Shown here: piece by piece, positions 7,272 through 36,952 of the stretch
How positions within the stretch are numbered: the first letter of the stretch is position 1
Layout: every line of letters starts with the position of its first letter
DNA from: Parcubacteria group bacterium
GTDB lineage: Bacteria > Patescibacteriota > Minisyncoccia > Phycocordibacterales > DATDWN01
Reading direction: 5' to 3'
NCBI GenBank assembly: GCA_038327915.1
Contig: JBBQLO010000001.1
Span: 20,407 to 84,406, forward strand
DNA length: 64,000 nucleotides
Translations under genes and position numbers: made by a program
The notes under the pieces: model-generated
Database searches by the model: none
Told to the model about the DNA's origin: nothing
The model's input: the letters and a program-made list of their open reading frames with translations, nothing else

Positions 7272-9056
7272 ATGAATAAGAAAGTTTTATTTGCAGTTGT
7301 TTTTACCGTATTTGTAGATTTGCTTGGGTTTGGAATCCTTTTGCCAGTTATACCACAACTTTTGGCAAACCCTGCTTCACCTTTTTATCTCCTACCACAC
7401 GGGGTAAGTCTTAAAATGGGCTATATCATACTTGGTTTTTTGACTGCAATTTTTCCTTTTATGCAGTTTCTTGCTACGCCGATACTCGGTGAACTTTCTG
7501 ATCGTTTTGGGCGTAAACCCGTCCTTGCTTTTTCTCTTTTTGGTACAAGTCTTTCGTATGTTATTTTTGCAATGGGTGTCCTGACTCGAAACTTGCCACT
7601 ACTTTTTATTGCACGTGCATTTGACGGACTCACGGGTGGCAATATCGCCGTCGCTCAGGCTGCTATTGCTGACGTATCTACCCCAGAAAATCGTGCTAAA
7701 AATTTTGGTCTTATAGGAGCTGCTTTTGGTGTCGGATTTATTCTAGGTCCATACTTGGGTGGTAAACTTTCTGATCCAACATTTGTTTCTTGGTTTAATG
7801 CATCTACACCTTTTTGGTTTGCAGCGGGTCTTGCATTTGTAAACACACTGTCAGTTATTTTCCTCCTGCCGGAGACACTCAAAGAAAAAAGTAAAACTCT
7901 TGCGCTTCACCTTGGCAAGTCTTTTCAAAATATTCGCAAAGCTTTTAGTCTTCCAAATATTCGTGCCGTGTTCAGTACCGTGTTTCTTTTTCAGGGTGGT
8001 TTTACATTTTTCACTACATTTTTTAGTGTCTTCCTTATTACGAAGTTTGCCTTTAATCAGGGCGATATAGGTAATTATTTTGCATATGTTGGATTGTGGA
8101 TCGCTTTCTCTCAGGCAGTTATTACTCGCCAAGTGACGAAGCGTTTTAATGAACAGGCTATCCTCCGTGTTTCTCTTATTGGTACGGGTATTTTTGTTCT
8201 TGCTCAGTTTATACCATCGGCATCGTGGGGACTCTTGCTCGTGGTACCATTTTTTGCAATGTTCAATGGACTGTCTCAAGCCAATCTTACATCATTAGCC
8301 AGCCGCTCAGCTGGATCAGAAATGCAGGGAGAGATTCTTGGTATCAATGCTTCGGTTATGGCTCTCGCTCAGTCTATACCACCAATTCTTTCGGGGTTTC
8401 TAGCCGCGTCTATTGGTGCGAGAGTTCCTATATTTGTTTCTGGGATCGTTATAATTCTTGCGGGCATCGTCTTTATATTTGCTTATAGTAAGACTTCCTC
8501 TGTAATTTTGCCTTACACAACATCTCACAAAAATAAATATATGAAAAAATTACTCATTGTTGCTGGCGTTCTTATCATTGTGTTGATTGGAGAAGTGACG
8601 TATTTCACTAAAATACGCACTCCTGCAAGTATATTCAACAGCGTAAACATTAGTGTCACACATCCACTACCGGTGACCGAAAACGCAGGCGTATCTTCGA
8701 CCACTACTGCTCATGCTGGGACAACTGGACAAGTAACGCCTTTGACACCGCCCGCAATACTTACGTACACCCCTATGATAATAACTCAAGCCAATAATAA
8801 CAGTATTGTGCATGTGAAAGTAGGATCACGTTTTACTCTTCAGCTCGGAGACATGCGGTGGAATATTTCTTTGAGCGATCCTGGCATCGTCAATCGCGTA
8901 CCTAATTTCGCTATGATTCGTGGTGCTCAGGGAATTTATTCAGCAGACAAACAAGGGGTGACTACACTCTCTGCCGAAGGACGTCCCACTTGTAATCCTG
9001 GGGAAATGTGTGCCCAGTACATCATTATATTTTCGATAACCATTGTAGTTGAATAA
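7272..9056 (+). CDS. MFS transporter fused to, or overlapping, a C-terminal membrane-anchored beta-rich extracytoplasmic domain
   Basis: MFS signature 'GELSDRFGRKPV' after TM2, with 12 TM-like segments up to about residue 420. An internal Met at 8541 (MKKLLIVAGVLIIVLIG) begins a signal-anchor and a roughly 170-aa domain in the same frame with no intervening stop. Confidence 0.7.
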   Translation: MNKKVLFAVVFTVFVDLLGFGILLPVIPQLLANPASPFYLLPHGVSLKMGYIILGFLTAIFPFMQFLATPILGELSDRFGRKPVLAFSLFGTSLSYVIFAMGVLTRNLPLLFIARAFDGLTGGNIAVAQAAIADVSTPENRAKNFGLIGAAFGVGFILGPYLGGKLSDPTFVSWFNASTPFWFAAGLAFVNTLSVIFLLPETLKEKSKTLALHLGKSFQNIRKAFSLPNIRAVFSTVFLFQGGFTFFTTFFSVFLITKFAFNQGDIGNYFAYVGLWIAFSQAVITRQVTKRFNEQAILRVSLIGTGIFVLAQFIPSASWGLLLVVPFFAMFNGLSQANLTSLASRSAGSEMQGEILGINASVMALAQSIPPILSGFLAASIGARVPIFVSGIVIILAGIVFIFAYSKTSSVILPYTTSHKNKYMKKLLIVAGVLIIVLIGEVTYFTKIRTPASIFNSVNISVTHPLPVTENAGVSSTTTAHAGTTGQVTPLTPPAILTYTPMIITQANNNSIVHVKVGSRFTLQLGDMRWNISLSDPGIVNRVPNFAMIRGAQGIYSADKQGVTTLSAEGRPTCNPGEMCAQYIIIFSITIVVE

Positions 9057-9059
9057 AAG

Positions 9060-9105
9060 TTATTCTTTCTATATTTTTTAGTTTTTTTTACTGTATAATG
9101 AAATA
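9060..9105 (+). promoter_or_regulatory. extended -10 promoter candidate (TGtATAAT) upstream of the ECF sigma gene
   Basis: 'tttactgtataatg' at 9089-9100 sits about 40 nt upstream of ATG 9143. Confidence 0.35.
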
Positions 9106-9142
9106 TTAGCCGGCGATTACTGTAATAATCTCGATACACCTC

Positions 9143-9736
9143 ATGGATGACAACACAGAGTTACGTGATGAAGTGTTAGCAGAACTTGTCCAAAAAGGTG
9201 ACAAGGAGAAGTTTGGTGTATTGATGCATCGTTACGGGGAAAAGCTTTTTCGGTACGGTCGTCGGTTTCTGTCTGAAAGGGAGTCTATCGAGGACATTGT
9301 CCAAGACGTTTTTATGAACACATATAAAAATATCCAAAGCTTCGATACATCACAAAAATTTTCTTCTTGGATATATCGCATTGCTCATAATGCTTTTGTG
9401 AATGAACTCAAACGCAGTTCAAGAAATCCACTGACTTTTTTTGATTTTGATTTTGACACACTTATATCTTACTCCGGCAGAGATCTTCATGAGGCAGATG
9501 GAGCCGTACACGACATTGAACAGAAAGAAATGAAAACAATGGTGGATCGAGGACTTGAAAAACTGTCGCCAAAATACAAAGAAATAATCATTCTTCATTA
9601 TGTCGAAGATCTGAGCTACAAAGAAATATCAGATGTTTTGGCAATTCCTGTCGGTACCGTTGGTATTCGCCTCAAGCGTGCCAAGGACTCCCTACGCAAG
9701 ACATATGAAAAACTCGATCTCACATTCACTGTATGA
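9143..9736 (+). CDS. RNA polymerase sigma-70 factor, ECF subfamily
   Basis: Region 2 'SWIYRIAHNAFVNELKR' and region 4 HTH 'LSYKEISDVLAIPVGTVGIRLKRAKDSLRK'. 197 aa. Confidence 0.8.
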   Translation: MDDNTELRDEVLAELVQKGDKEKFGVLMHRYGEKLFRYGRRFLSERESIEDIVQDVFMNTYKNIQSFDTSQKFSSWIYRIAHNAFVNELKRSSRNPLTFFDFDFDTLISYSGRDLHEADGAVHDIEQKEMKTMVDRGLEKLSPKYKEIIILHYVEDLSYKEISDVLAIPVGTVGIRLKRAKDSLRKTYEKLDLTFTV

Positions 9737-10455
9737 CTCAAGAAAAATTTATAACAAAAGAAGAAAAAATTCAGGAGACGGTTCTCGAAAAGATTCGATG
9801 TAATGAGATAACCATGCGTCCGAAATTTTATCATTTCATGAAAGTCGTGGTATTTATTCTTGTAACTTTTTTAATTTTAGTTATTTCCGTATTTATTTTT
9901 AGTTTTATTCTTTTCAGTATTCGTGCTTCAAGTCAGTTGTTTTTACTCGGATTTGGACTGCGTGGTATCGTTGTGTTTTTTGTGCTTTTTCCGTGGTTTC
10001 TTTGTATTTTGGATATTGTATTGATTTGTGTTCTTGAACTTCTACTCCGACATTTTCGATTTGGTTATAGACGCTCTGCAATCTACCTTCTTGGGGGTAT
10101 TCTCGTGGTCATGATTTCCCTGGGTTTTCTTTTGGAGCGTGTCCGTTTTCATGAAGGATTACTTGATATTTCTGAGCATCATCGTCTTCTTTTTCCCCTT
10201 GGTGAAATGTATGCACATACGCGTGCCCTGCCTGCTCACGAGCAAGGACTCTGTCGGTGCGTTATAACGGCTATTTCGGTGGATTCCCTTATACTCAGAG
10301 ATGATGATTCTTCCTACGGGACCACTACTGAATTTGTTGTGGCGCTGCCACTTTCATTTGTTACAGACACATTTGTGGTAGGTGATCGGGTTTTTGTAGC
10401 AGGTACAGTGATTGACGGAAAAGCTCAAGCATTTGGGATTCAAAAAATGAAATAA
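9733..10455 (+). CDS. putative anti-sigma factor / membrane protein
   Basis: Overlaps the sigma gene by 4 nt (ATGA). Has a cytoplasmic N-terminus, then multiple TM helices, then a C-terminal domain. The call rests on position only. Confidence 0.4.
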   Translation: MTQEKFITKEEKIQETVLEKIRCNEITMRPKFYHFMKVVVFILVTFLILVISVFIFSFILFSIRASSQLFLLGFGLRGIVVFFVLFPWFLCILDIVLICVLELLLRHFRFGYRRSAIYLLGGILVVMISLGFLLERVRFHEGLLDISEHHRLLFPLGEMYAHTRALPAHEQGLCRCVITAISVDSLILRDDDSSYGTTTEFVVALPLSFVTDTFVVGDRVFVAGTVIDGKAQAFGIQKMK

Positions 10456-10532
10456 AAACTCTTTTGTGGGTGTATGAATATGCATAGCAACTGTAATCAT
10501 AGCTGTGTACAAGGAATACACATATAATACAT

Positions 10533-10946
10533 ATGAAAAAAATCATCAGAAAGTCACTTAAGGGGTCACTACGAAGATATGGTAAAATTAAAAATACACT
10601 GTGGGCGAGTGCTCGAGCGGGTTTTGTTACATCCATGATGCTTGTTGGTACTAGTACTGCCTTTGCCCAGCCTTACACTCTATATCGAGGGGGTATGACT
10701 TCATCCCCCCAGTCTGTCTTTGACCAAGCGGACCAAGCGGATTATATTCCTTTTGTTTCCTCAACTGATGCCAAAGTAGACTCAAAGATGCACACAATGC
10801 ACCGCTTTAATTCTCGTTCTCGAGCTAGGGGACTGGCTAAGGGTCTCGGTGTGTCAGAAAGTGACATGAGTCGGGCACTCAGTGCAGGTAAACCAGTCAA
10901 ACAGATGTTAATAGAAAAAGGAATTATGCCGTCGGAATTGAAATAA
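10533..10946 (+). CDS. small secreted protein, hypothetical
   Basis: Basic N-terminus followed by a hydrophobic core ending 'AFAQP', which is signal-peptide-like. 137 aa. Confidence 0.4.
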   Translation: MKKIIRKSLKGSLRRYGKIKNTLWASARAGFVTSMMLVGTSTAFAQPYTLYRGGMTSSPQSVFDQADQADYIPFVSSTDAKVDSKMHTMHRFNSRSRARGLAKGLGVSESDMSRALSAGKPVKQMLIEKGIMPSELK

Positions 10947-10972
10947 AACTAATTTACTTTAAAATTTAATTC

Positions 10973-11527
10973 TTGACTAATGGTATGGAACTAAAAGCAA
11001 AAAAAAATATAGGTATTATTGTTGGATCAATCGTTGTTGTCATGATCTCAGTGGCGGTATACATTTTAGTTAAATCTTCAAAAAAAATGGAAGTAGTGGT
11101 ATTGGATCATATAGATACAACACAGACACAGGCAGGTGTGACAATTAATGCGACAAGTAGTGTTGCAACTACAGAACGTGTCAACTCACACGGATCAATG
11201 ATGGGAAGTGGGGGTGGTATGATGGCACCTACTTATAAAAACGGCACATATACTGCAGTGGGTTCGTACAATTCTCCCGGAGGTTTAGAAAAAATAAAAG
11301 TATCACTCACTCTTCAAAATGACACTGTCGTGGAGGCGATCACTGTTGGTGAAGCGTCTTCTCCAACGTCAAAAGAATATCAGGCACAGTTTATATCAGG
11401 TTTCAGGCCGAGTGTTGTTGGTAAAAATATAACAGCCATTTCTCTTGATGTTGTATCCGGATCTTCACTGACATCTCAAGGCTTTAACGATGCTGTACTA
11501 AAAATTAAGACACAAGCGAAAGGTTAG
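10973..11527 (+). CDS. membrane-anchored FMN-binding domain protein (flavinylation substrate candidate)
   Basis: N-terminal TM anchor. 'YKNGTYTAVGSYNSPGGLEKIKVSLTLQNDTVVEAITV' and 'DVVSGSSLTSQGFNDAV' match the FMN_bind domain pattern, including an [ST]G[AS][ST]-like flavin attachment motif. Confidence 0.55.
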   Translation: MTNGMELKAKKNIGIIVGSIVVVMISVAVYILVKSSKKMEVVVLDHIDTTQTQAGVTINATSSVATTERVNSHGSMMGSGGGMMAPTYKNGTYTAVGSYNSPGGLEKIKVSLTLQNDTVVEAITVGEASSPTSKEYQAQFISGFRPSVVGKNITAISLDVVSGSSLTSQGFNDAVLKIKTQAKG

Positions 11528-11536
11528 AACCGGACT

Positions 11537-12511
11537 ATGCGGTTACCAACTTTTTCATTTGAAGCCATTGGTACGCAGTGGGCAATATACATCGGAGATG
11601 AGGATGGAGAAGTTTCTTCCGATTTAAGTTTAGAATTGTCTGAAAAAATTCAAAAGAGGATCGCTGTATTTGATCTGCACTACTCGCGTTTCAGATCAGA
11701 TTCTCTCGTGTCTGAAATGTCTCGAGTTGCTGGAGTGTATACGTTGCCAGCTGATGCAGAAGCATTGTTTGACGTGTATAAGAAAACATACGACGTGACT
11801 GGGGGTCTTGTCACTCCACTCATCGGTCAGGCTCTCGTTGATCTTGGATACGATGCACAATACTCCCTTGTGCCAAAGACGGTTATCGGAAAAGTACCCC
11901 AATGGAAAGACGTTCTACACTATGATTACCCACTTCTCACTGTGAAGACTCCCGTACTTCTTGATTTTGGGGCTGCGGGTAAGGGCTATTTGATTGACAT
12001 TATAGGGAAGATACTCAAAGATAGCCTGAGAAACAGTAAAGTATTTTCTTTTACCGTCGATGCTGGTGGAGATATTTTGCACGCAAAATGCGAAAAGCAT
12101 ATTACTTCCCCTAGGCAGCGCCTAGGGGTGATGAAAATAGAAAAAAAACTACGAGTTGGACTCGAGAATCCCGAAGACACCACTCAAATAATTGGTGTGG
12201 CAGAAGTTTGCAATGAAAGTATTTGTGGCTCTGCGGGCAATCGTCGCACGTGGCAAAAGTTGGGAAACAAAGGAGAAATAAAAAAACTTACACACATTAT
12301 TCACCCCGAAACGCATTCATCTCCGAAAGGAATATCTGCCATTTGGACTATTGCTTCGACCGCGTGTGTTGCCGACATGCTCGCCACTGCACTTTCTTTT
12401 GTTTCTCCTGAAATACTCAGACCACATTTTTTATTCGAATACCTCATTCTGAACACCGACTACAGTATCAATAAATCAGAGGGTTTTGTGGTTGAATTAT
12501 TTACAGTATAA
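11537..12511 (+). CDS. apbE: FAD:protein FMN transferase, ApbE family
   Basis: ApbE blocks are present: 'AIGTQWAI', 'LLDFGAAGKGYLID', 'FTVDAGGDIL', 'GSAGNRRTW...HIIHPETHSSP' and 'ADMLATALSF'. Confidence 0.75.
   Translation: MRLPTFSFEAIGTQWAIYIGDEDGEVSSDLSLELSEKIQKRIAVFDLHYSRFRSDSLVSEMSRVAGVYTLPADAEALFDVYKKTYDVTGGLVTPLIGQALVDLGYDAQYSLVPKTVIGKVPQWKDVLHYDYPLLTVKTPVLLDFGAAGKGYLIDIIGKILKDSLRNSKVFSFTVDAGGDILHAKCEKHITSPRQRLGVMKIEKKLRVGLENPEDTTQIIGVAEVCNESICGSAGNRRTWQKLGNKGEIKKLTHIIHPETHSSPKGISAIWTIASTACVADMLATALSFVSPEILRPHFLFEYLILNTDYSINKSEGFVVELFTV
12108..12128. repeat. palindrome CCCCTAGGC-AGC-GCCTAGGGG inside apbE coding sequence
   Basis: Perfect 9-bp arms. It shares the core CCTAGGCARCGCCTAGG with the intergenic palindrome at 14541-14573. 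Confidence 0.5.
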
Positions 12512-12569
12512 TGTGATGAGTAATAAAATCTTTTTTGTGAAAAGAAATATTTTTTAATAATAAATTTTT

Positions 12570-14180
12570 ATGGAAAAAATCGATAATTTTTTAAATGACA
12601 TCACTATGTATAGAGTAATGCTTTACGGTCTTTGCATTTTAGCCGTTATTGCGATTATCTTTGGATTTTTGGGGGTTATTTCCTATTCTGGGTTTTCACT
12701 TTTTTTAAGTCTTGTCGTTATTATTTTTGCTTGTTTTACAACAAATCTAATTTTTGCAAAAATATTTCGAGCGCCAACAAACGTTGAGTCGTCGTGGATT
12801 ACTGGTTTTATTTTATTTTTTATACTTTCACCGATCACTATTTCTTCTATCTTTCCCTTTCTTTCTCTTTCCACTTTTTCAAAAATTTTGATATTCATTT
12901 TAGTTGGTACGATAGCAATGGCTTCTAAGTATATTCTCGCCATTGGCAAAAAACATATTTTTAATGCAGTTGCTATATCACTTTTTGTGATTGGTTTATT
13001 TGGTTTAGGCATAGGTATATGGTGGATAGCGAGTCCGGCGATGCTTGGACCAGTCGCTTTTTTGGGTTTTTTTATTTTACGCAAAACTCGTCGCTTCTCG
13101 CTCTTTTTTGCTTTTTTGGTACCGGCATATATTGCTATTTTAGTTTTTGCATTTTTAAATCACGTAGTATTGTCTAGTCTTTTTCTTCAAGTTTTTACTT
13201 CGTGGCCGATTATTTTCTTCGGCACCATTATGCTGACAGAACCACTCACCACTCCTCCATATCTTCGAATGCAGGTTATATACGGAATTTTGGTCGGAGT
13301 TCTTTTTGGCTCACAATTTTCTTTTGGACCAGTTTACTCCACTCCAGAATTTGCTTTGATTGTTGGAAATATTTTTGCTTATATAGTCAGTCCAAAACAA
13401 AAATTGATGTTAGAGCTTACAGAGAAAAAGAAAATTGCTTCAAATATTTTTGAATTTATTTTTACGTCCCCTCAAGTTGCTCTTCGAAAATTTTATTTTA
13501 AACCAGGACAATATTTAGAATGGACACTTGCACACAGTCACCCAGACACTCGTGGTAACAGGCGTTATTTCACTATTGCTTCTTCGCCGACCGAAGACAC
13601 TATTCGCCTCGGCATACGTACTGACCCGCTTGAGTCTAGTTCATTTAAGAAAAAATTAGTGTCGATGAAAAAGGGTGATCTGATAGTAGCATCTCAACTT
13701 GCAGGAGAGTTTACTATGCCGATAGATCATCACATCTCGATGGTTTGGATTGCAGGAGGTATTGGGGTAACACCTTTTCGTAGTATGCTTATGTATTTAT
13801 TGGACAAAAATGCAGAACAGAAAGAGAATAATATAAAGAAAAATAAAAACCAAGAAGAAATACATAACATCACTCTTTTTTATTCCAACAAAACTTTTAT
13901 AGATATTGCATATGCAGACATTCTTGATCGTGCCGAGAGGGAACTAGGAGTGAAAGTTGTGGTAACACTTACCGACATGGCTTCATTGCCCCCAGACTGG
14001 CAGGGCGAAACAGGATTTGTTGATCGAAGAATGATTGCGCGCCACGTCGTCGACCCTACCGTCTGCATGTACTATATTTCCGGTCCACACAACATGGTCA
14101 CTGCATATGAAACTGTACTTGCAGCCATGAATGTACGTTCTTCGCACATAAAGTCTGACTTCTTTCCTGGATTTGCATAA
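12570..14180 (+). CDS. membrane-bound NOX/FNR-like oxidoreductase (polytopic TM domain plus FAD/NAD(P)-binding domain)
   Basis: Roughly 280 aa of TM helices with only 2 His, so not a classical bis-heme ferric reductase domain. The C-terminus carries 'RRYFTIASSP' (the RxYS FAD motif), 'GGIGVTPFRSML' (the NAD(P) GGxGxxP motif) and 'CMYYISGPHNMV'. Confidence 0.65.
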   Translation: MEKIDNFLNDITMYRVMLYGLCILAVIAIIFGFLGVISYSGFSLFLSLVVIIFACFTTNLIFAKIFRAPTNVESSWITGFILFFILSPITISSIFPFLSLSTFSKILIFILVGTIAMASKYILAIGKKHIFNAVAISLFVIGLFGLGIGIWWIASPAMLGPVAFLGFFILRKTRRFSLFFAFLVPAYIAILVFAFLNHVVLSSLFLQVFTSWPIIFFGTIMLTEPLTTPPYLRMQVIYGILVGVLFGSQFSFGPVYSTPEFALIVGNIFAYIVSPKQKLMLELTEKKKIASNIFEFIFTSPQVALRKFYFKPGQYLEWTLAHSHPDTRGNRRYFTIASSPTEDTIRLGIRTDPLESSSFKKKLVSMKKGDLIVASQLAGEFTMPIDHHISMVWIAGGIGVTPFRSMLMYLLDKNAEQKENNIKKNKNQEEIHNITLFYSNKTFIDIAYADILDRAERELGVKVVVTLTDMASLPPDWQGETGFVDRRMIARHVVDPTVCMYYISGPHNMVTAYETVLAAMNVRSSHIKSDFFPGFA

Positions 14181-14221
14181 AAGCTTTGTTTCTAGATCCA
14201 TTTTTGATTTTTGGATAGCAA

Positions 14222-14251
14222 TTGACAAAATACATTTTACTGTTGTAAAAT
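14222..14251 (+). promoter_or_regulatory. sigma-70-like promoter (TTGACA-18-TAAAAT) upstream of small ORF
   Basis: TTGACA at 14222-14227 and TAAAAT at 14246-14251. A strong SD 'AAAGGAG' lies at 14286-14292. Confidence 0.4.
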
Positions 14252-14297
14252 ACAGTGGAAAGCTGAAAACAAGCTAAAGTTTTTAAAAGGAGAAAAT

Positions 14298-14516
14298 ATG
14301 ATCTGTATTAATTTTCGGAGTCACCAAATTACTATTAACGTAGAGGACCTTGATTGTGGGAGTAGACCAGGCAATAGTTCTTCTTTGGTTGTGTCTAAAG
14401 AAGGTCAGGGTCACACCTGCAAATTTGTAGGCATGAACAATACCTACAGTAGTGGAAATTTCGAACTCGAAGGTCAAGCTCTATTTTATCTCATGCAAGC
14501 GATTGTGAATGTATAG
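14298..14516 (+). CDS. small protein (72 aa), hypothetical, with consensus promoter and SD
   Basis: ATG preceded by AAAGGAGAAAAT. No signal peptide or known motif. Followed by a 15-bp palindromic hairpin. Confidence 0.3.
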   Translation: MICINFRSHQITINVEDLDCGSRPGNSSSLVVSKEGQGHTCKFVGMNNTYSSGNFELEGQALFYLMQAIVNV

Positions 14517-14540
14517 TTTGATTGGAAGGACGGGCTAAAT

Positions 14541-14573
14541 CCCTCAGCCCTAGGCAACGCCTAGGGCTGAGGG
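14541..14573. repeat. 15-bp-arm perfect palindrome CCCTCAGCCCTAGGC-AAC-GCCTAGGGCTGAGGG
   Basis: Seen directly in the sequence. No T-run follows on either strand, so it is not a classical terminator. Confidence 0.6.
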
Positions 14574-14658
14574 ACGGATTAATCAAGCGGCGTCACTAAG
14601 ACTCCGAGAAATCGGGGTCGTCTTATATATACAAAATATTTCATGCTACAATTGTCAC

Positions 14659-16362
14659 ATGACTCAAGCCGAAGCACTCGACATATTGAAAATGGGTAAG
14701 AATGTTTTTCTTACTGGGCCAGCTGGTAGTGGAAAGACGTTTGTCTTGAATTCCTATGTTGAGTATCTCAAATCAAACGCGGTGGATGTCGCAGTAACTG
14801 CTTCGACGGGTATTGCAGCGACACACCTGGGAGGTATGACCATACACTCGTGGTCTGGTCTTGGTATACGGAGTACGCTGACGGACTACGATATCGAAGA
14901 CATGATGAGTAAACAATATTTGTACAAACGCTTTGAGCGGACAAAAGTACTCATTATCGACGAAGTTTCTATGCTTCATCACTTTCGTCTCGACTTAATC
15001 GAGTGGATTTGTAGGCAGTTTAAACACAACGACTCGCCTTTTGGTGGTATGCAAATTATACTTTCCGGAGATTTCTTTCAGCTACCGCCGGTGACGCGGG
15101 GTGACGTTTTAGAATCTGAATTTGCTTACAAGGCAGACTCGTGGGCACGCTCTGATTTCACCATCTGTCATCTTTCGGAACAACATCGACAGAAAGACGA
15201 CGTATATCTCGAAATTCTTAACCAGATTCGTCAAAATAATGTGAGTAAAAAAACTCTAGCTCTTTTACAGAGCAGAATAAATCAGGATCCTGAATCCGGA
15301 GCAGAACCGACTAAACTTTTTACACATAATGTAGATGTCGATGTCATCAATCACCGCCATCTCGATCTGATAGAAGGGGATATTAAAAAGTTTATTATGA
15401 CTTCTCGGGGTTCTCCGGGACTTGTTGAGAGTCTTAAAAAAAGTTGTCTTTCTCCGGAAACACTTGTGTTGAAATTGGGCGCACGGGTAATGTTTACTAA
15501 AAATAGCCAGCAGAATCAATATGGCGAAGATTACCAGCACAGCTACGTTAACGGCACACTAGGTGTGGTCAGTGATTTTAATTCATTTGGCGACCCCGTT
15601 ATTCGCACTATTCAAGGAAATACGTTCAGCGTTTCGCCTGCAAGTTGGAAAATAGAAGAGGAGGGAAAAATAAAAGCAGAGATTTCACAGTTACCGCTAC
15701 GTCTTGCGTGGGCCATTACGGTACATAAAAGTCAGGGCATGTCTCTCGATGCTATGGAGGTTGATTTGTCAAAGTCTTTTGTACGGGGGATGGGCTATGT
15801 TGCGCTTTCTCGGGTGCGATCCCTCGGTGGGATGAAACTTCTTGGTTATAATGCAATGGCTTTGCAAGTAGATACCGAAGTTCTTGCACAAGACGCACTT
15901 ATGCGCGACATGTCCGAGGACACTGGAAGTGATTTGAAAGAAATGACTCGCGGGGAAATAACGGCGGTGCAAAATGAGTTTATGAAAAAAATTGAACCGG
16001 ACGAAAAAAAGAAAATAAAAATAAAAGAAGGGAAAATAAAAAAAGAGCAAAATAAATCGACGCATGACATCACGGCTGATTTGCTGGCAGAGAAAATGTC
16101 AATCGGAGAAATGGCTGAGACTCGAAAAATGACACAAGAAACGATAATTTCGCATATCGAAAAACTAATTGAATTAAAAACAAATCCAGACTTTGCATAT
16201 TTACGAGATGAATTAGGGCGTGGAGAATTTAAAGATATGTTAGAAGCCTTTGCCAAAGCTAAGACAAAGACTCTCGCTCCTGTTTATAATATTTTAGACA
16301 AAAATAAAAAAAATCCAAGTTACCTCAAACTTCGACTGGCACGGCTTTTTTTGGAGAAATAA
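14659..16362 (+). CDS. PIF1/RecD-like SF1B 5'-3' DNA helicase with C-terminal HTH-like domain
   Basis: Walker A 'LTGPAGSGKTFVL', motif II 'LIIDEVSM', 'ITVHKSQGMS', and a Lys/Glu-rich linker leading to a C-terminal helical domain. Confidence 0.75.
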   Translation: MTQAEALDILKMGKNVFLTGPAGSGKTFVLNSYVEYLKSNAVDVAVTASTGIAATHLGGMTIHSWSGLGIRSTLTDYDIEDMMSKQYLYKRFERTKVLIIDEVSMLHHFRLDLIEWICRQFKHNDSPFGGMQIILSGDFFQLPPVTRGDVLESEFAYKADSWARSDFTICHLSEQHRQKDDVYLEILNQIRQNNVSKKTLALLQSRINQDPESGAEPTKLFTHNVDVDVINHRHLDLIEGDIKKFIMTSRGSPGLVESLKKSCLSPETLVLKLGARVMFTKNSQQNQYGEDYQHSYVNGTLGVVSDFNSFGDPVIRTIQGNTFSVSPASWKIEEEGKIKAEISQLPLRLAWAITVHKSQGMSLDAMEVDLSKSFVRGMGYVALSRVRSLGGMKLLGYNAMALQVDTEVLAQDALMRDMSEDTGSDLKEMTRGEITAVQNEFMKKIEPDEKKKIKIKEGKIKKEQNKSTHDITADLLAEKMSIGEMAETRKMTQETIISHIEKLIELKTNPDFAYLRDELGRGEFKDMLEAFAKAKTKTLAPVYNILDKNKKNPSYLKLRLARLFLEK

Positions 16363-16474: not shown

Positions 16475-19400
16475 ATGACTAAGAAAATACATGTTCGACT
16501 GCGCTGTCCTCCATTATTATTTTCATTAGTTATAATATTTGTTTGTTCTATTTTTTTCAGTCTTCCTTTTGGTATTTTTAGTAAAGTGGCATATGCCACT
16601 TTTTTTCCGCCCTTTCCCCCACCTCCTCCCGGTAATCTTGATCTCAGTATAGATTCTCAGGGTAATATTCCATCAGTTTCTATATCTTGTACGGTAGGCC
16701 ATGACTATACACTGGCACTCGTTCACGAAGAAGATGGTGTTGTTTCGTACAGTCCCGGTGTTAAGCAAAGAATATATTGTCTCACAGGCGTGATAACATT
16801 TGATGGTTTCAATCTTAATGAGCAATTAAAACTGTATGTAGATATACATTACCCTGTATATTATTACATTCGTTCACCACTCGAGTATGTTATAAAAGAT
16901 ACAACAGGATTGGGTTCGGGGATTGGGTGCAACCAAAACAGTTGCCCACTTATAAATGAAACGGGAGATTTTAATAGTTATAACTATTCTTCATATCTCC
17001 CATCGTCAAGTTATTGGCCGACTGTTGCTGCCGGACCGACTTTTGTTACTTATAATTATGTGACGTGGTTTAATCGTACAAATGGAAATGGGGTCGCAAA
17101 TGTATACCCACCCTCAGGAAATTCGAGTGTTCTTTTCTTGCCTGGGATTGAAGCAAGTCGTTTATATGTGGCAGCCCAGCCGAGTGCGGGAATTCCAGAA
17201 AGAAGACTGTGGGAGCCAAGTAATGACCAAGACGTAGAGCATCTATATCTCGATTCAAATGGCAAACAGCCCGTGTCTGCATTTCCCGTTTTCAACAACA
17301 TTTACACTCGTGATGTTATTAATAGTGCATACGGAACGATAGGTATTTATGGATCTTTCCTTTCTCAGCTAGAAAAAATGAAATCGACCGACCATTCTAT
17401 CGCCGACTATGCCGCAGTGCCTTATGACTGGCGCCTGTCGCTTGACGATATTTTGAACGGGGGCGTTAAGAGTGGCGAAGGAAGTAATGTCCAAATTTCA
17501 TTTATCTCAACAACTTTTGATCCGTACATTATTTCTGAATTACGTCGTCTGGTTCTCGGCTCAAAGTCAGGAAATGTAACTATCGTGGCACATTCAAATG
17601 GTGGGCTGGTAGCAAAAGCTTTGCTCAAAAGACTTTCGGACACGCACGACCCACTTTTAGAGAAAATAGATAAGCTTATATTGGTTGCGGTACCTCAACT
17701 TGGAACGCCGGAAGCAATCGCCGCAACTTTGCATGGTAAAGAACAGGGTATTCCGCCCGCTTTCCCTGTAATTCTCAATGAAAATACCGCAAGAGGTTTT
17801 GCTCAAAATAGTCCGATGGCATACAACTTATTGCCGGATAACAATTACATTACTTATGTAGATACACCTGTGGTAACATTTGATTCTACTCTACCTGACT
17901 GGAGTGCAAAATATGGTAGTACGATTCATTCCACCGGAGGTCTGCATACGTTTCTCACTGATACATATGGAAGAGTGGAGGCAACAAGTGTTGATGTCAG
18001 TAAACCAGATACACTTAACGCTTCGCTTCTGACTGCATCAGAAGACATGCATGCATCTCTCGATGCGTGGCCAATTCCTGAAAGTATTGATGTGACAGAA
18101 ATAGCAGGTTGGGGAGTGCCTTCGACCATGAGTGGAATTGTATATACAAAGAAAAAACAATGCGCCGAGGTTGTGTGTGCAAACCTGCTAGCGCCAACTG
18201 TTGAGCCTAATCCAACGTGGACTATAGATGGTGATGGAACGGTAGTCACTGCGAGTGCTCTGTGGGCAAATGGCAGTACGACCATGAAGAGATATTGGGT
18301 GGATATGAAGGGATATAACAATGATCATAAACTTCAAACATTAGGAGGATTAAATAATTTTGATCATAAAAATATTCTGCAAATTTATGAATTAAATAAT
18401 TTTATTTCAGATATTGTTTTAGGCTCTCCACATCCTCTCACCAGTTATACTTATTTGTCTATCGAAGCTCCTGCAAGTAGAGAAAATCGTTTAATGTATT
18501 CTCTCCACTCGCCCCTCACTCTCAACCTTTACGACACTAAAGGTCGTCACACAGGTATTTCCACTACCACTGGCCGGATCGAAGAACAAATTCCTGACAC
18601 CTACTACACCCAGTTTGGAGATGTCAAATATATTTTTAGTGACGACGCCACGACAAGTGAGGTAGTAATGAACGGCTATGCCACAGGGACTTTTACATTT
18701 AACATCAATCAATTGCAGGGTGATACACTCATTGCGAGCACCACATTCAAAGATATTCCGACAAGTACGACCACTCAAGTGACTTTAAATATTGGAGGCT
18801 CAGTGAGTACACTCTCTCCTATGAGCATAGATAAAAATGGTGACGGCATTATTGACACAGTGCTCGCTCCCAAACTCAATGGTGTGGTCACTCTCGACAC
18901 TACTCCGCCAGTGACTACCGCCACGACAACAGGAACGAGAGGTAAAAACGGCTGGTATACGAGCGATGTATCAGTTCAACTTGGCGCAACCGATACTGAA
19001 AGTGGAGTTGCGACCACATGGTATTCAATAAACGGAAAGACGTGGCTTGCGTACAGTACGAGTAGTCCAATTATTGTAAATATAGAGGGAACTACCACTG
19101 TTTCATATTATTCTACCGACATTGCTGGCAATAGCGAAGCGACAAATACGCGTGTCATTAAAATAGACAAGACTACTCCCGAGGCTCTAATAACTTTTGA
19201 CCCTGTCTCCCAGCAGTTAACTGTTTTAGGTACAGATGCAATTTCCAGCACAACAGTTTTCACTACTGCAACCTCATCACTCATTACCGACACGGCAGGG
19301 CACACTCTCCAGATTTTCTTTACTCAATTACAAAAAAAAGTAAAATCACATATTATTAATCTTGTCGTTACCAAACTCAGCTACGATGGGGTTGCAACTA

Positions 19401-19669
19401 CTACATCCAGTGTGATGAAGTACAAATGGATGACAGATGCAATAAATCATTTTAGACTTTTTACCCTCCACGCCGTTGCTTCAGGCACTGAAATGGAATC
19501 GCACTATCGGCCAAAAAAAGATGTGACAGTTATCATGACTAAACCCAGTGATTTTGATGACGGTACTACTGATGACGATGTTGATTTACGACCGATAAAG
19601 ACAAAAATAAATGGTATGGTTGTGCCGGGACTAAAAACAAATAAAGGAAATATTATGATTAATTATTAA
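16475..19669 (+). CDS. large secreted alpha/beta-hydrolase (PGAP1/LCAT-like lipase motif) with Ig-like/beta-sandwich domains
   Basis: Signal anchor. 'VTIVAHSNGGLVAKALL' is a GHSxGG-type nucleophile elbow. The later block 'TTPPVTT...GKNGWYTSDVSVQLGATDTESGVATTWYSINGKTW...YYSTDIAGNSEA...IDKTTPEA' matches a common bacterial Ig-like surface module. Confidence 0.6.
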   Translation: MTKKIHVRLRCPPLLFSLVIIFVCSIFFSLPFGIFSKVAYATFFPPFPPPPPGNLDLSIDSQGNIPSVSISCTVGHDYTLALVHEEDGVVSYSPGVKQRIYCLTGVITFDGFNLNEQLKLYVDIHYPVYYYIRSPLEYVIKDTTGLGSGIGCNQNSCPLINETGDFNSYNYSSYLPSSSYWPTVAAGPTFVTYNYVTWFNRTNGNGVANVYPPSGNSSVLFLPGIEASRLYVAAQPSAGIPERRLWEPSNDQDVEHLYLDSNGKQPVSAFPVFNNIYTRDVINSAYGTIGIYGSFLSQLEKMKSTDHSIADYAAVPYDWRLSLDDILNGGVKSGEGSNVQISFISTTFDPYIISELRRLVLGSKSGNVTIVAHSNGGLVAKALLKRLSDTHDPLLEKIDKLILVAVPQLGTPEAIAATLHGKEQGIPPAFPVILNENTARGFAQNSPMAYNLLPDNNYITYVDTPVVTFDSTLPDWSAKYGSTIHSTGGLHTFLTDTYGRVEATSVDVSKPDTLNASLLTASEDMHASLDAWPIPESIDVTEIAGWGVPSTMSGIVYTKKKQCAEVVCANLLAPTVEPNPTWTIDGDGTVVTASALWANGSTTMKRYWVDMKGYNNDHKLQTLGGLNNFDHKNILQIYELNNFISDIVLGSPHPLTSYTYLSIEAPASRENRLMYSLHSPLTLNLYDTKGRHTGISTTTGRIEEQIPDTYYTQFGDVKYIFSDDATTSEVVMNGYATGTFTFNINQLQGDTLIASTTFKDIPTSTTTQVTLNIGGSVSTLSPMSIDKNGDGIIDTVLAPKLNGVVTLDTTPPVTTATTTGTRGKNGWYTSDVSVQLGATDTESGVATTWYSINGKTWLAYSTSSPIIVNIEGTTTVSYYSTDIAGNSEATNTRVIKIDKTTPEALITFDPVSQQLTVLGTDAISSTTVFTTATSSLITDTAGHTLQIFFTQLQKKVKSHIINLVVTKLSYDGVATTTSSVMKYKWMTDAINHFRLFTLHAVASGTEMESHYRPKKDVTVIMTKPSDFDDGTTDDDVDLRPIKTKINGMVVPGLKTNKGNIMINY

Positions 19670-21444: not shown

Positions 21445-21729
21445 ATGAAATCCTTTACAAAAAAGGTGAGAGAGGCTGTTGCTAAAATTCCGGCGGGCAA
21501 AGTGTTAAGTTACGGTGAGGTGGCTCGACTGGCAGGCAGTCCACAAGCAGCTCGAGCTGTCGGAGCTGTTATGCGCAATAATTTTGATCCTGCTATTCCA
21601 TGCCACCGAGTAGTCCTTTCTTCTGGTGTGGTGGGAGAGTATAACCGTAATGGTTCAAATAAAAAAATGGAAATTTTAAAAAAAGAAGGTGTGAAGTTTA
21701 TGCGAGATAATAGAGTGCAGATGAAATGA
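21445..21729 (+). CDS. MGMT-family protein (methylated-DNA-protein-cysteine methyltransferase DNA-binding domain only)
   Basis: 'VLSYGEVARLAG...PCHRVV' places the active-site Cys in a PCHR motif. 94 aa with no N-terminal domain. Confidence 0.75.
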   Translation: MKSFTKKVREAVAKIPAGKVLSYGEVARLAGSPQAARAVGAVMRNNFDPAIPCHRVVLSSGVVGEYNRNGSNKKMEILKKEGVKFMRDNRVQMK

Positions 21730-22193
21730 AATACTGGCTTTTCAAAAGTGATGCGGAGTGTTATTCAATGGAGGATTTTGTGTTAGAAAGTAAACAGACA
21801 AAAAGCAAAGTACCATGGGTGGGTGTGCGCAACTATCAAGCTCGTAATTTTATGAGAGAGATGGGTATCGGAGACGGCATTCTTTTTTATCAATCGGGAA
21901 AAATACCGGCGGTGATCGGTGTGGCCACTGTTTCGGGAAAAGTTCATGCAGACATGTCAGCACAAGACCCGAAAGACGAGCATTTTGACCCGAAAGCGTC
22001 ACTAGAAAATCCTATCTGGCAATGTGTTGATATTTCATTTGCTAGAAAATTTAAAAACCAAGTAACTTTGGCAGACATTAAATTTCGCGCAGACCTCTGT
22101 GAAATGCTCGTAGCCCAACGCGGAGGTCGACTTTCCATTCAGCCCGTATCAAAAAAGCATTTTAAACGAGTGGTGGAAGTTGGGGGAAAATAA
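21726..22193 (+). CDS. EVE (PUA-like) domain protein
   Basis: 'KYWLFKSD...WVGVRNYQARNFMREMGIGDGILFYQSGK...VIGVATV' matches the EVE domain. Its start overlaps the MGMT stop (ATGA). Confidence 0.7.
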   Translation: MKYWLFKSDAECYSMEDFVLESKQTKSKVPWVGVRNYQARNFMREMGIGDGILFYQSGKIPAVIGVATVSGKVHADMSAQDPKDEHFDPKASLENPIWQCVDISFARKFKNQVTLADIKFRADLCEMLVAQRGGRLSIQPVSKKHFKRVVEVGGK

Positions 22194-36223: not shown

Positions 36224-36952
36224 TTATTTCGAGAGTAATGTGTCGATTGTTGACTTGAGAGCCTCATACGACTCTGCACCGACAACTGGTATTTGTGAAC
36301 CGTCTTTTGTGATAAGAACTGAGTATGGTGTTCCTTGGGCGCCCGCTTTCACCGCTTCGTCATAGCTCGCTTGAATTTTAGCTGAATATTTTCCTGAATT
36401 GAGACAGGTTGTGAAATTTTTAGTGTTGATTCCTATTGTTGAAGCAAAGGTTGTGAGTTGCGCGGGGTCGAGACCATTGTTACCCGGAGTCTGGTCGTAA
36501 ATCATGTTGAGATATTGCCAAAATTTAGCCGGACCACCTATTTCATTGACACATTCAGTTGCCTCTGCTTCTTTTGGTGCTTTGGAATGAAGTTGAGCGA
36601 TAGGAAAGTGGCGATATACCCACGCAACTTTACCATCTTTGCCATATTCGGTCATAAGCCGATTGAGCGTTGGGTTAAAAAGTTTGCAGTACGGACATTC
36701 AGTATCAGAATATTCAACAATTACAATATCTGCGTTCGGATTCCCGAGAATATGGTCGCTTGCGGATATAGAAGGAATCTGGTGAGGTGCTGTTGGTGTT
36801 GTTGTAGTTGTGACTGCTTGATTTTTGATTGTTTCTTTTTTTGCATTGAGGTTGGAAAAATATAGTGCACCAGCAATGATACCTCCGGCAACGATGATAG
36901 CAATAGGAATGGCGATTTTGTTTGTGTCCATGGTGTGTATTATACCTTTCAA
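36224..36952 (-). CDS. DsbA-like thiol:disulfide oxidoreductase (thioredoxin fold), membrane anchored
   Basis: N-terminal TM helix and a CxxC active site 'TECPYCKLF'. Confidence 0.7.
   Translation of the reverse strand: MKGIIHTMDTNKIAIPIAIIVAGGIIAGALYFSNLNAKKETIKNQAVTTTTTPTAPHQIPSISASDHILGNPNADIVIVEYSDTECPYCKLFNPTLNRLMTEYGKDGKVAWVYRHFPIAQLHSKAPKEAEATECVNEIGGPAKFWQYLNMIYDQTPGNNGLDPAQLTTFASTIGINTKNFTTCLNSGKYSAKIQASYDEAVKAGAQGTPYSVLITKDGSQIPVVGAESYEALKSTIDTLLSK

Follow-up and report, generated by a model that had tools for sequence, protein, structure and literature searches.

A probable NQR/RNF-like flavinylation-associated module with a leaderless ApbE in a Parcubacteria group bacterium

Three co-oriented genes lie close together on the forward (+) strand of a 64,000-nucleotide (nt) stretch of DNA, hereafter the window, from a Parcubacteria group bacterium (GenBank assembly GCA_038327915.1, contig JBBQLO010000001.1, positions 20,407 to 84,406), and they probably belong to the flavinylation-associated system published as "NQR/RNF-like", a reduced relative of NqrB–NqrC–NqrF and RnfD–RnfG with two subunits and an ApbE of its own. 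The first gene (10973..11527) codes for an NqrC/RnfG-like FMN_bind subunit, the second (11537..12511) for an ApbE-family flavin adenine dinucleotide (FAD):protein flavin mononucleotide (FMN) transferase, and the third (12570..14180) for a fusion of a membrane domain with an FNR-type domain; the intergenic gaps are 9 and 58 nt, and all features described below are on the same strand unless noted. The identities and common orientation of the three genes had been proposed in an earlier reading of the bare sequence (the original prediction), and have been confirmed by the open reading frames (ORFs) and by Pfam, profile and fold matches; the motifs quoted there, DVVSGSS, RRYFT and GGIGVTPF, are where they were said to be, and the ApbE hallmark set is present as well. 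The Pfam scan covered 38 ORFs of the window, out of 45 with at least 150 amino acids (aa). Relatives were sought in one genome per species, which gave at least 585 confirmed relatives, and the best 80 of them were used for the comparison of loci; counts of gene order refer to the 75 loci with enough upstream DNA, in a flank of 6 kb.

The FMN_bind subunit has 184 aa when read from a TTG start; the ATG at 10985, chosen by an independent gene call on the identical public contig, is the likelier start and gives a protein of 180 aa. When the window protein is used to seed a family profile, that profile matches the solved FMN-binding domain 8p2a (E=1.6e-18) and, more weakly, 8p2b and 3o6u, with the VSG[AS][ST] motif aligned in these matches. 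The flavinylation motif DVVSGSS (11447..11467, residues 159-165), which is of the D-x-x-[ST]-G-[AS]-[ST] type and lies near the C-terminus, pairs with VSGAT of 8p2a and also with FTGAT of Escherichia coli RsxG, although the local HH alignment to RsxG covers the motif region only and the profile search of the PDB is the more informative of the two. Ser165 (codon 11465-11467) is the predicted FMN acceptor. The pattern D-x-[VI]-S-G-[AS]-[TS] is kept in 75 of 78 FMN_bind homologues, the acceptor position being occupied by Thr in 47 and by Ser in 31. At the other end of the protein there is an N-terminal membrane anchor, NIGIIVGSIVVVMISVAVYILV (11006..11071, in translation), and in most homologues this region resembles a signal anchor of the classic form "MKK + hydrophobic stretch", after which comes a linker rich in Ser, Thr, Pro and Asn. 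The charge difference across the anchor favours an N-in/C-out orientation in the window protein (+3) and in 51 of 63 homologues, so that the FMN_bind domain is predicted, from this bias, to face outward with its N-terminus inside.

In the 536-aa fusion protein, residues 1-275 (12570..13394) form a membrane domain of about 10 helices, and this membrane component is a homologue of NqrB and RnfD. The Pfam model PF03116 (NQR2_RnfD_RnfE) matches the window sequence weakly (18 bits against a cut-off of 27.7, E=0.002); the fusion protein has more than 7,600 database relatives, many of them with recorded PF03116 and PF00175 domains and some named RnfD. A membrane-domain profile matches RnfD of Azotobacter vinelandii (8ahx_D, E=0.002) across the TDPVT region. 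The membrane domain was also modelled alone, because the PDB search with the full-length model is dominated by the FNR-type domain; the resulting AlphaFold model (predicted local distance difference test, pLDDT, 83.8; predicted template modelling score, pTM, 0.82) finds RnfD or NqrB chains as all of its best 15 PDB matches, with template modelling scores (TM-scores) of 0.51-0.63, and the next matches are urea transporters at E about 1. The original prediction had spoken of a "different membrane component", a view overturned by the PF03116 and 8ahx_D matches and by the 15 best fold matches. Its accompanying remark that the domain has two His residues and is not a bis-heme ferric-reductase domain was correct: there are exactly two (His 129 and His 198, of which only H129 is invariant), and the fold search returns RnfD and NqrB.

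A global profile alignment of the membrane domain to E. coli RsxD is collinear and includes four motif pairs, namely NxES, KHIFNPxA with QNPFNPAM, WW with WQW, and MLTEPLTTPP with ILTDPVTAST. RsxD residues about 143-218, which contain the flavinylated T187 within SQAT, have no counterpart here, and no [ST]G[AS][ST] motif occurs in the membrane domain of the fusion protein. With the T187 segment missing, the domain is a shortened NqrB/RnfD without a covalent FMN site of its own. In Vibrio cholerae, mutagenesis of NqrB has been shown to place riboflavin in a pocket formed by N200, N203, T345 and D346 (PMC9293633). When these residues are numbered through an alignment of RsxD with NqrB and then carried over the RsxD alignment to the window protein, N200 and N203 correspond to H129 and N132, in the motif KKHIFNA (12948..12968), and T345 and D346 to T223 and E224, in the motif MLTEPLTTPP (13230..13259), the equivalent of the RnfD TDP motif. 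All four residues are invariant in 28 family members, and so are M221, P225, P229 and P230. The mapped pocket residues support a putative non-covalent flavin in the membrane domain, without proving one. An insertion in an outer loop of this domain (residues about 89-105, about 12834-12884) is absent from 27 homologues.

The remainder of the fusion protein (13404..14180, residues 279-536) is a cytoplasmic FAD- and NAD(P)H-binding domain of FNR/NqrF type with the motifs RRYFT (13560-13574) and GGIGVTPF (13755-13778). NAD_binding_1 (PF00175) matches residues 394-513 with 53.8 bits against a cut-off of 22; the NCBIfam models for flavohemoprotein, flavin reductase and NqrF show weak similarity, well below each cut-off. 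There are sequence matches of this domain to solved NqrF FAD domains, and the full-length model finds the dehydrogenase domains of flavohemoglobin, NqrF and SpNOX as structural matches (E about 1e-16). The NAD domain has a Lys/Asn/Glu-rich insertion (residues about 425-440, about 13842-13889), modelled with low confidence and absent from 27 homologues.

The 324-aa product of the middle gene matches Pfam ApbE (PF02424) with 92.2 bits against a cut-off of 25.6, and its FAD-binding, metal-binding and catalytic blocks (GKGY, S/T-x-G-x-x-R, H-[IV]-I-x-P and D-x-x-x-T) align with those of E. coli ApbE. In the translation, the ApbE motifs are FEAIGT (11558-11575), GAAGKGY (11969-11989), CGSAGNRR (12224-12247), HIIHPET (12293-12313) and ADMLATA (12371-12391). 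The alignment to mature E. coli ApbE pairs query residue 11 with chain residue 23. No signal peptide and no lipobox have been found in the window ApbE, whose start lies 10 residues before the conserved GT motif and 9 nt from the upstream stop codon. The syntenic ApbEs are leaderless at about 70 loci, again with no N-terminal extension. In 120 database homologues from independent pipelines (286-312 aa), the motif F-x-A-I-G-T starts at residue 3-13 in 115, and four further homologues have the variant F-E-G-I-G-T at residues 3-6; with the motif so near the N-terminus, 119 of the 120 have no room for a leader, one homologue is clearly extended, and a lipobox is found in none of them. The enzyme is accordingly predicted from its sequence to be cytoplasmic, while its substrate is predicted to face outward, and the extracytoplasmic ApbE of the original prediction is not upheld by the window copy or by its homologues. 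That prediction had named a cytoplasmic location of both ApbE and its substrate as fatal to it; half of this has been found, the enzyme being cytoplasmic by sequence and the substrate still predicted outward. Two apparent gene fusions were set aside: a 755-aa ApbE–RnfD/FNR fusion (L061, 5161-7425), which would have fixed ApbE on the cytoplasmic side had it been real, is an artefact of a masked N run in the public record, and an anchor–FMN_bind–ApbE fusion (L045) arises in a GC-rich genome from reading out of frame between stop codons.

The best 80 relatives come from many classes of Patescibacteria, from Chloroflexota (among them Ktedonospora formicarum, which is in culture) and from one metagenome-assembled genome of Actinomycetota. 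The order FMN_bind–ApbE–fusion is shared by 63 of the 75 loci, its intergenic gaps being tiny or overlapping, and the FMN_bind gene adjoins the fusion gene in 69; this co-occurrence in related genomes, which the original prediction had proposed to look for, is far above chance. An iterative search ties the window FMN_bind protein to 73 of 81 related loci. The family is also large, since 1.84 billion cluster representatives searched with a profile of the membrane domain yielded 615 proteins (clusters at 50% identity, E<=1e-30), mostly fusions of 480-510 aa. Two subtypes can be told apart in which the type of ApbE and the substrate motif co-vary: that of the window, with a FEAIGT-type ApbE of about 290-324 aa paired with SGSS, and another with an IMGMPITVE-type ApbE of about 250 aa paired with SGAT. 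The window copy belongs to a somewhat divergent subtype. An FMN_bind gene is present and ApbE is missing from the flank at five loci (L012, L018, L019, L023 and L070), and both partners are absent at four others (L024, L053, L055 and L077). Tandem pairs of FMN_bind genes occur upstream of the fusion gene at L010, L018, L060 and L070 (and at L045). The recurrent neighbours in the 80 loci are generic: an ABC ATPase (21), a histidine kinase (13), an HlyD-like protein (13) and an extracytoplasmic function (ECF) sigma factor (11). MsrA and MsrB were considered as functional partners and rejected; they occur at 5-6 loci, and their proximity reflects shared ancestry and not a functional link, because they are 3-5 kb distant, mostly leaderless and limited to close relatives.

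This arrangement has been described before. Under the name "NQR/RNF-like", the system was defined as a fusion of PF03116 and PF00175 inside a flavinylation gene cluster, with clusters found mainly in Actinobacteria and the candidate phyla radiation, and it was proposed to pass NAD(P)H electrons one way, to an FMN-binding domain that faces outward (Méheust 2021, eLife, PMC8238504). Later, the two-subunit complex of Ktedonobacter racemifer was modelled with AlphaFold-multimer, which docks the FMN_bind subunit on the outer face, beside the position that the absent covalent FMN would fill; the NqrB/RnfD flavinylation site is lacking in the membrane domain, and the covalent flavin of the partner was suggested to reach the non-covalent flavin site (Huang 2024, mSystems, PMC11334425). 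The locus described here agrees with the operational definition of Méheust 2021 in having a C-terminal PF00175 domain, an NqrB/RnfD-like membrane domain, and a cluster with ApbE and FMN_bind directly upstream; as in Huang 2024, the membrane domain is without the flavinylated Thr of NqrB/RnfD. The route suggested in the original prediction, in which a membrane reductase hands electrons of NAD(P)H on to an outward protein that is flavinylated, matches the model of both papers (PMC8238504, PMC11334425). Its expectation that such a system would be notable in a reduced-genome, fermentative lineage has been anticipated, the candidate phyla radiation having already been named among the main carriers (PMC8238504). 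Since an independent analysis reproduces the published conclusions, the mechanism would be right in outline but is not new; with the system already in print, the locus adds little: it contributes a divergent subtype and sets out plainly the problem of ApbE localisation, which bears on how the system is assembled.

The proposed mechanism is as follows. By family membership, NAD(P)H would reduce the FAD of the C-terminal FNR-type domain on the cytoplasmic side. Electrons would then pass to a non-covalent flavin in the pocket of NqrB type formed by H129, N132, T223 and E224, as the residue mapping suggests, and from there to an FMN linked through a phosphoester to Ser165 of the anchored FMN_bind subunit, which may dock on the outer face where NqrB or RnfD would hold a covalent FMN of its own on the loop that is deleted here. 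The last step would lead to an acceptor outside the cytoplasm. The covalent FMN would be installed by ApbE with FAD as its source, and the net function would be a one-way export of electrons from NAD(P)H, possibly in the service of redox balancing, iron reduction or the maintenance of envelope redox state, in a bacterium for which the window gives no hint of a respiratory chain. Candidate phyla radiation bacteria are taken to be fermenters that have no electron-transport chains, and for this reason the module may be one of the few candidate links of such cells to external redox chemistry (redox balancing, iron reduction or envelope repair). Because it would need only two subunits and flavins, it is also attractive as a minimal model of how flavins alone could carry electrons across a membrane.

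Several points weigh against this assignment and the outward route that comes with it. The system has been described by bioinformatics only (PMC8238504, PMC11334425), and no experimental data on any of its members have been found in the literature. The profile check called for by the original prediction came out clearly for ApbE (92.2 bits) and NAD_binding_1 (53.8 bits), both above their cut-offs, but not for FMN_bind (PF04205), where the window protein reaches 21.8 bits against a cut-off of 22; being 0.2 bits short, it is borderline on its own. When ten homologues were searched with this model, six more distant members passed with 31-42 bits and four close relatives gave no match, so that the closest subtype of the window protein has no Pfam match. 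The residue mapping to NqrB comes from a global alignment of low probability that is anchored by short motifs. The topology is based only on a count of charge bias across the anchor, and 12 of 63 homologues show a bias that is neutral or opposite. No conserved acceptor or partner gene has been found beside the trio among the 80 loci. Finally, the leaderless ApbE makes an outward-facing substrate awkward, given what is known of the enzyme elsewhere. In Salmonella, a periplasmic location has been reviewed as essential for ApbE, a leaderless form having failed to complement, while in Klebsiella pneumoniae a leaderless ApbE acts on a fumarate reductase of the cytoplasm, and specificity is reported to be controlled by where the enzyme is located (PMC12052999). 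No discussion of leaderless cluster ApbEs has been found in Méheust 2021 or Huang 2024: the term "signal peptide" has zero occurrences in the text of the latter, and in the former its occurrences concern filtering.

An ApbE without an export signal implies that flavinylation most likely takes place on the cytoplasmic side, before translocation of the FMN_bind domain, and the simplest way to reconcile the two predictions would be that the motif is flavinylated there and the domain translocated afterwards; short peptide tags are known to be modified by ApbE (PMC12052999). Export of a pre-folded flavoprotein by the twin-arginine translocation (Tat) pathway was considered as such a reconciliation, and it is not supported, because a twin arginine precedes the anchor in only 1 of 63 proteins (KK in 34, RK in 5, KR in 4, RR in 1). 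A broader reading, less likely than not, combines these elements: the FMN_bind subunit would be flavinylated in the cytoplasm and then translocated with its covalent FMN or, alternatively, the subunit would face inward and the published outward model would be wrong; in a bolder extension, the two-subunit module would still pump cations. If true, flavinylation before translocation would be a route to outward-facing flavoproteins without a described precedent, and organisms forced to scavenge flavins would no longer need an FAD exporter; a cation-pumping module would be a minimal form of redox energy conservation for candidate phyla radiation bacteria. The leaderless ApbE and its implications for topology or complex assembly are the point possibly worth following up.

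In a rival reading, the whole flavin chain would lie on the cytoplasmic side, with the FMN_bind domain inward (N-out/C-in, or peripheral) and flavinylated there by the leaderless ApbE. The FMN_bind domain could then stand between the FNR-type and membrane domains or act as a membrane-tethered cytoplasmic NAD(P)H:acceptor reductase, with the NqrB-like domain carrying electrons outward alone or only serving as an anchor. The missing export signal at about 70 loci and in the 120 homologues argues for this arrangement, as do the fumarate reductase of K. pneumoniae served by a leaderless ApbE (PMC12052999) and the 12 anchors with neutral or reversed bias. It is nevertheless unlikely, since most anchors are signal-anchor-like and the charge favours N-in/C-out in the other 51. 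In addition, the published AlphaFold-multimer model docks the subunit on the outer face (PMC11334425), and the loop deleted here faces the periplasm in the solved NQR and RNF structures.

Less probable again is a minimal redox-driven ion pump, in which the NqrB/RnfD-like domain would have kept cation translocation, building a Na+ or H+ gradient with an external acceptor, and might even run in reverse. NQR and RNF are ion pumps, the membrane domain shares the NqrB/RnfD fold, and invariant polar or charged residues lie within the membrane (N59, N71, E73, S74, K120, K128 and E224); however, NqrD/E and RnfA/E with their Fe-S centre are absent from the module, so that the semicircular pathway has been lost, and pumping by NQR is reported to require that several subunits be conformationally coupled. 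Flavin binding also accounts better for the conserved pocket residues than ion transport does (PMC9293633). As for the idea that the three genes are chance neighbours (an unrelated flavin reductase, an ApbE for another target and a small membrane protein), it might draw on the lack of an acceptor or further partner kept nearby and on the loci without ApbE or without both partners, yet it is very unlikely and hardly to be believed in view of a gene order held in 63 of 75 loci over distant phyla with tiny or overlapping gaps, of an ApbE subtype that co-varies with the substrate motif (FEAIGT with SGSS, IMGMPITVE with SGAT), and of a deleted FMN site in one protein that is complemented by the flavinylation motif of its neighbour. 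Membership in the NQR/RNF-like system, with electrons exported to an outward-facing subunit, remains the probable reading.

Directly upstream of the module lie three further genes in the same orientation. An ECF sigma factor (9143-9736, with Sigma70_r2 and r4 matches) is overlapped by 4 nt by the gene of a 240-aa polytopic membrane protein without a Pfam match (9733-10455), maybe an anti-sigma factor, and this is followed by the gene of a 137-aa protein with a signal peptide and no Pfam match (10533-10946). These three genes may have a regulatory role for the module. The six-gene order (sigma factor, membrane protein, 137-aa protein and trio) is found only in the nearest relatives, L003 and L014, so any regulatory link would be lineage-specific; a scan of 8900-14800 for promoters and terminators gave counts equal to those of shuffled controls. 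The rest of the window holds housekeeping genes and genes of glycolysis or fermentation, namely rpoB, rpoC, dnaG, rpoD and hisS and the genes for a class II aldolase, a PfkB kinase, a D-2-hydroxyacid dehydrogenase and a split transketolase, and no cytochrome, quinone or RNF/NQR subunit genes have been found among the scanned ORFs. This gene content fits a fermentative bacterium of the Patescibacteria, a lineage suggested by the nearest homologues and by gene order shared with Minisyncoccia genomes.

Other genes of the window show features of their own. Before the sigma factor, a major facilitator superfamily (MFS) transporter (7272-9056) is extended at its C-terminus by about 200 residues that include one more hydrophobic segment and a Thr-rich linker, the region having no Pfam match. 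Immediately downstream of the module there is a PIF1-family helicase with a C-terminal HTH_40 domain (14659-16362), then a 1064-aa protein (16475-19669) that has an LCAT-like lipase/acyltransferase domain, a hydrophobic segment at its N-terminus and a long C-terminal region rich in Thr, and further downstream an EVE-domain protein (21726-22193). A DsbA-like thioredoxin-fold protein is encoded on the opposite (-) strand (36224-36952), 22 kb from the module, in a region without sign of quinone genes.

The closest comparison is with the published NQR/RNF-like system itself, with which the module shares gene set, architecture and taxonomic range (candidate phyla radiation, Actinobacteria and Ktedonobacter), nothing essential being different. 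The window copy has its own traits within it: the SGSS motif with a Ser acceptor, the longer FEAIGT-type ApbE, an FMN_bind domain that does not exceed the Pfam cut-off, two lineage-specific insertions, and the upstream pair of ECF sigma factor and possible anti-sigma factor. Like Na+-NQR (NqrA-F), the module has the NqrB fold, counterparts of the riboflavin pocket, an NqrC-like partner with a covalent FMN motif and an NqrF-like FAD/NADH domain; unlike it, it has no NqrA, no NqrD/E, no 2Fe-2S domain of NqrF and no covalent FMN site in the NqrB-like domain, its ApbE is not a lipoprotein, and its electron path would be one-way and not semicircular. The likeness to RNF (RnfABCDGE) lies in a membrane domain collinear with RnfD, in the motifs NPFNPA (here HIFNPxA), WW and LTDPVT (here LTEPLT), and in an RnfG-like partner, whereas RnfA/E, RnfB and RnfC are missing, the RnfD loop of about 75 residues with T187 is deleted, and an FNR-type domain replaces RnfC as the site for NAD(P)H. 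The canonical subunits RnfA/E (NqrD/E), RnfB and RnfC/NqrA have been found neither among the neighbours and the 38 scanned ORFs of the window nor among the recurrent neighbours in the 80 loci.

Systems with other membrane machinery show how far the resemblance reaches. The extracellular electron transfer of Listeria (FmnB, PplA, Ndh2 and EetA/B) also sends electrons from NADH to a protein outside the cytoplasm that is flavinylated by ApbE, and does so in a fermentative organism, but its membrane machinery is unrelated (Ndh2 with a quinone) and its FmnB and PplA are lipoproteins for which FAD is exported, while the ApbE of the module is leaderless and its route would be independent of quinone. 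In K. pneumoniae, the cytoplasmic ApbE and its NADH:fumarate reductase (Bertsova 2014, cited in PMC12052999) resemble the module in that both ApbEs are without a signal peptide and have a target of FMN_bind type; the Klebsiella substrate is a soluble cytoplasmic enzyme, whereas that of the module is membrane-anchored and predicted to face outward. The NOX/FRE and MsrQ-like reductases similarly join a polytopic membrane domain to an FNR-type FAD/NAD(P)H domain at the C-terminus, although the module has no bis-heme His set and its fold is that of NqrB/RnfD and not of a ferric-reductase domain. With two subunits and flavins only, the module is the simplest known relative of NQR and RNF.

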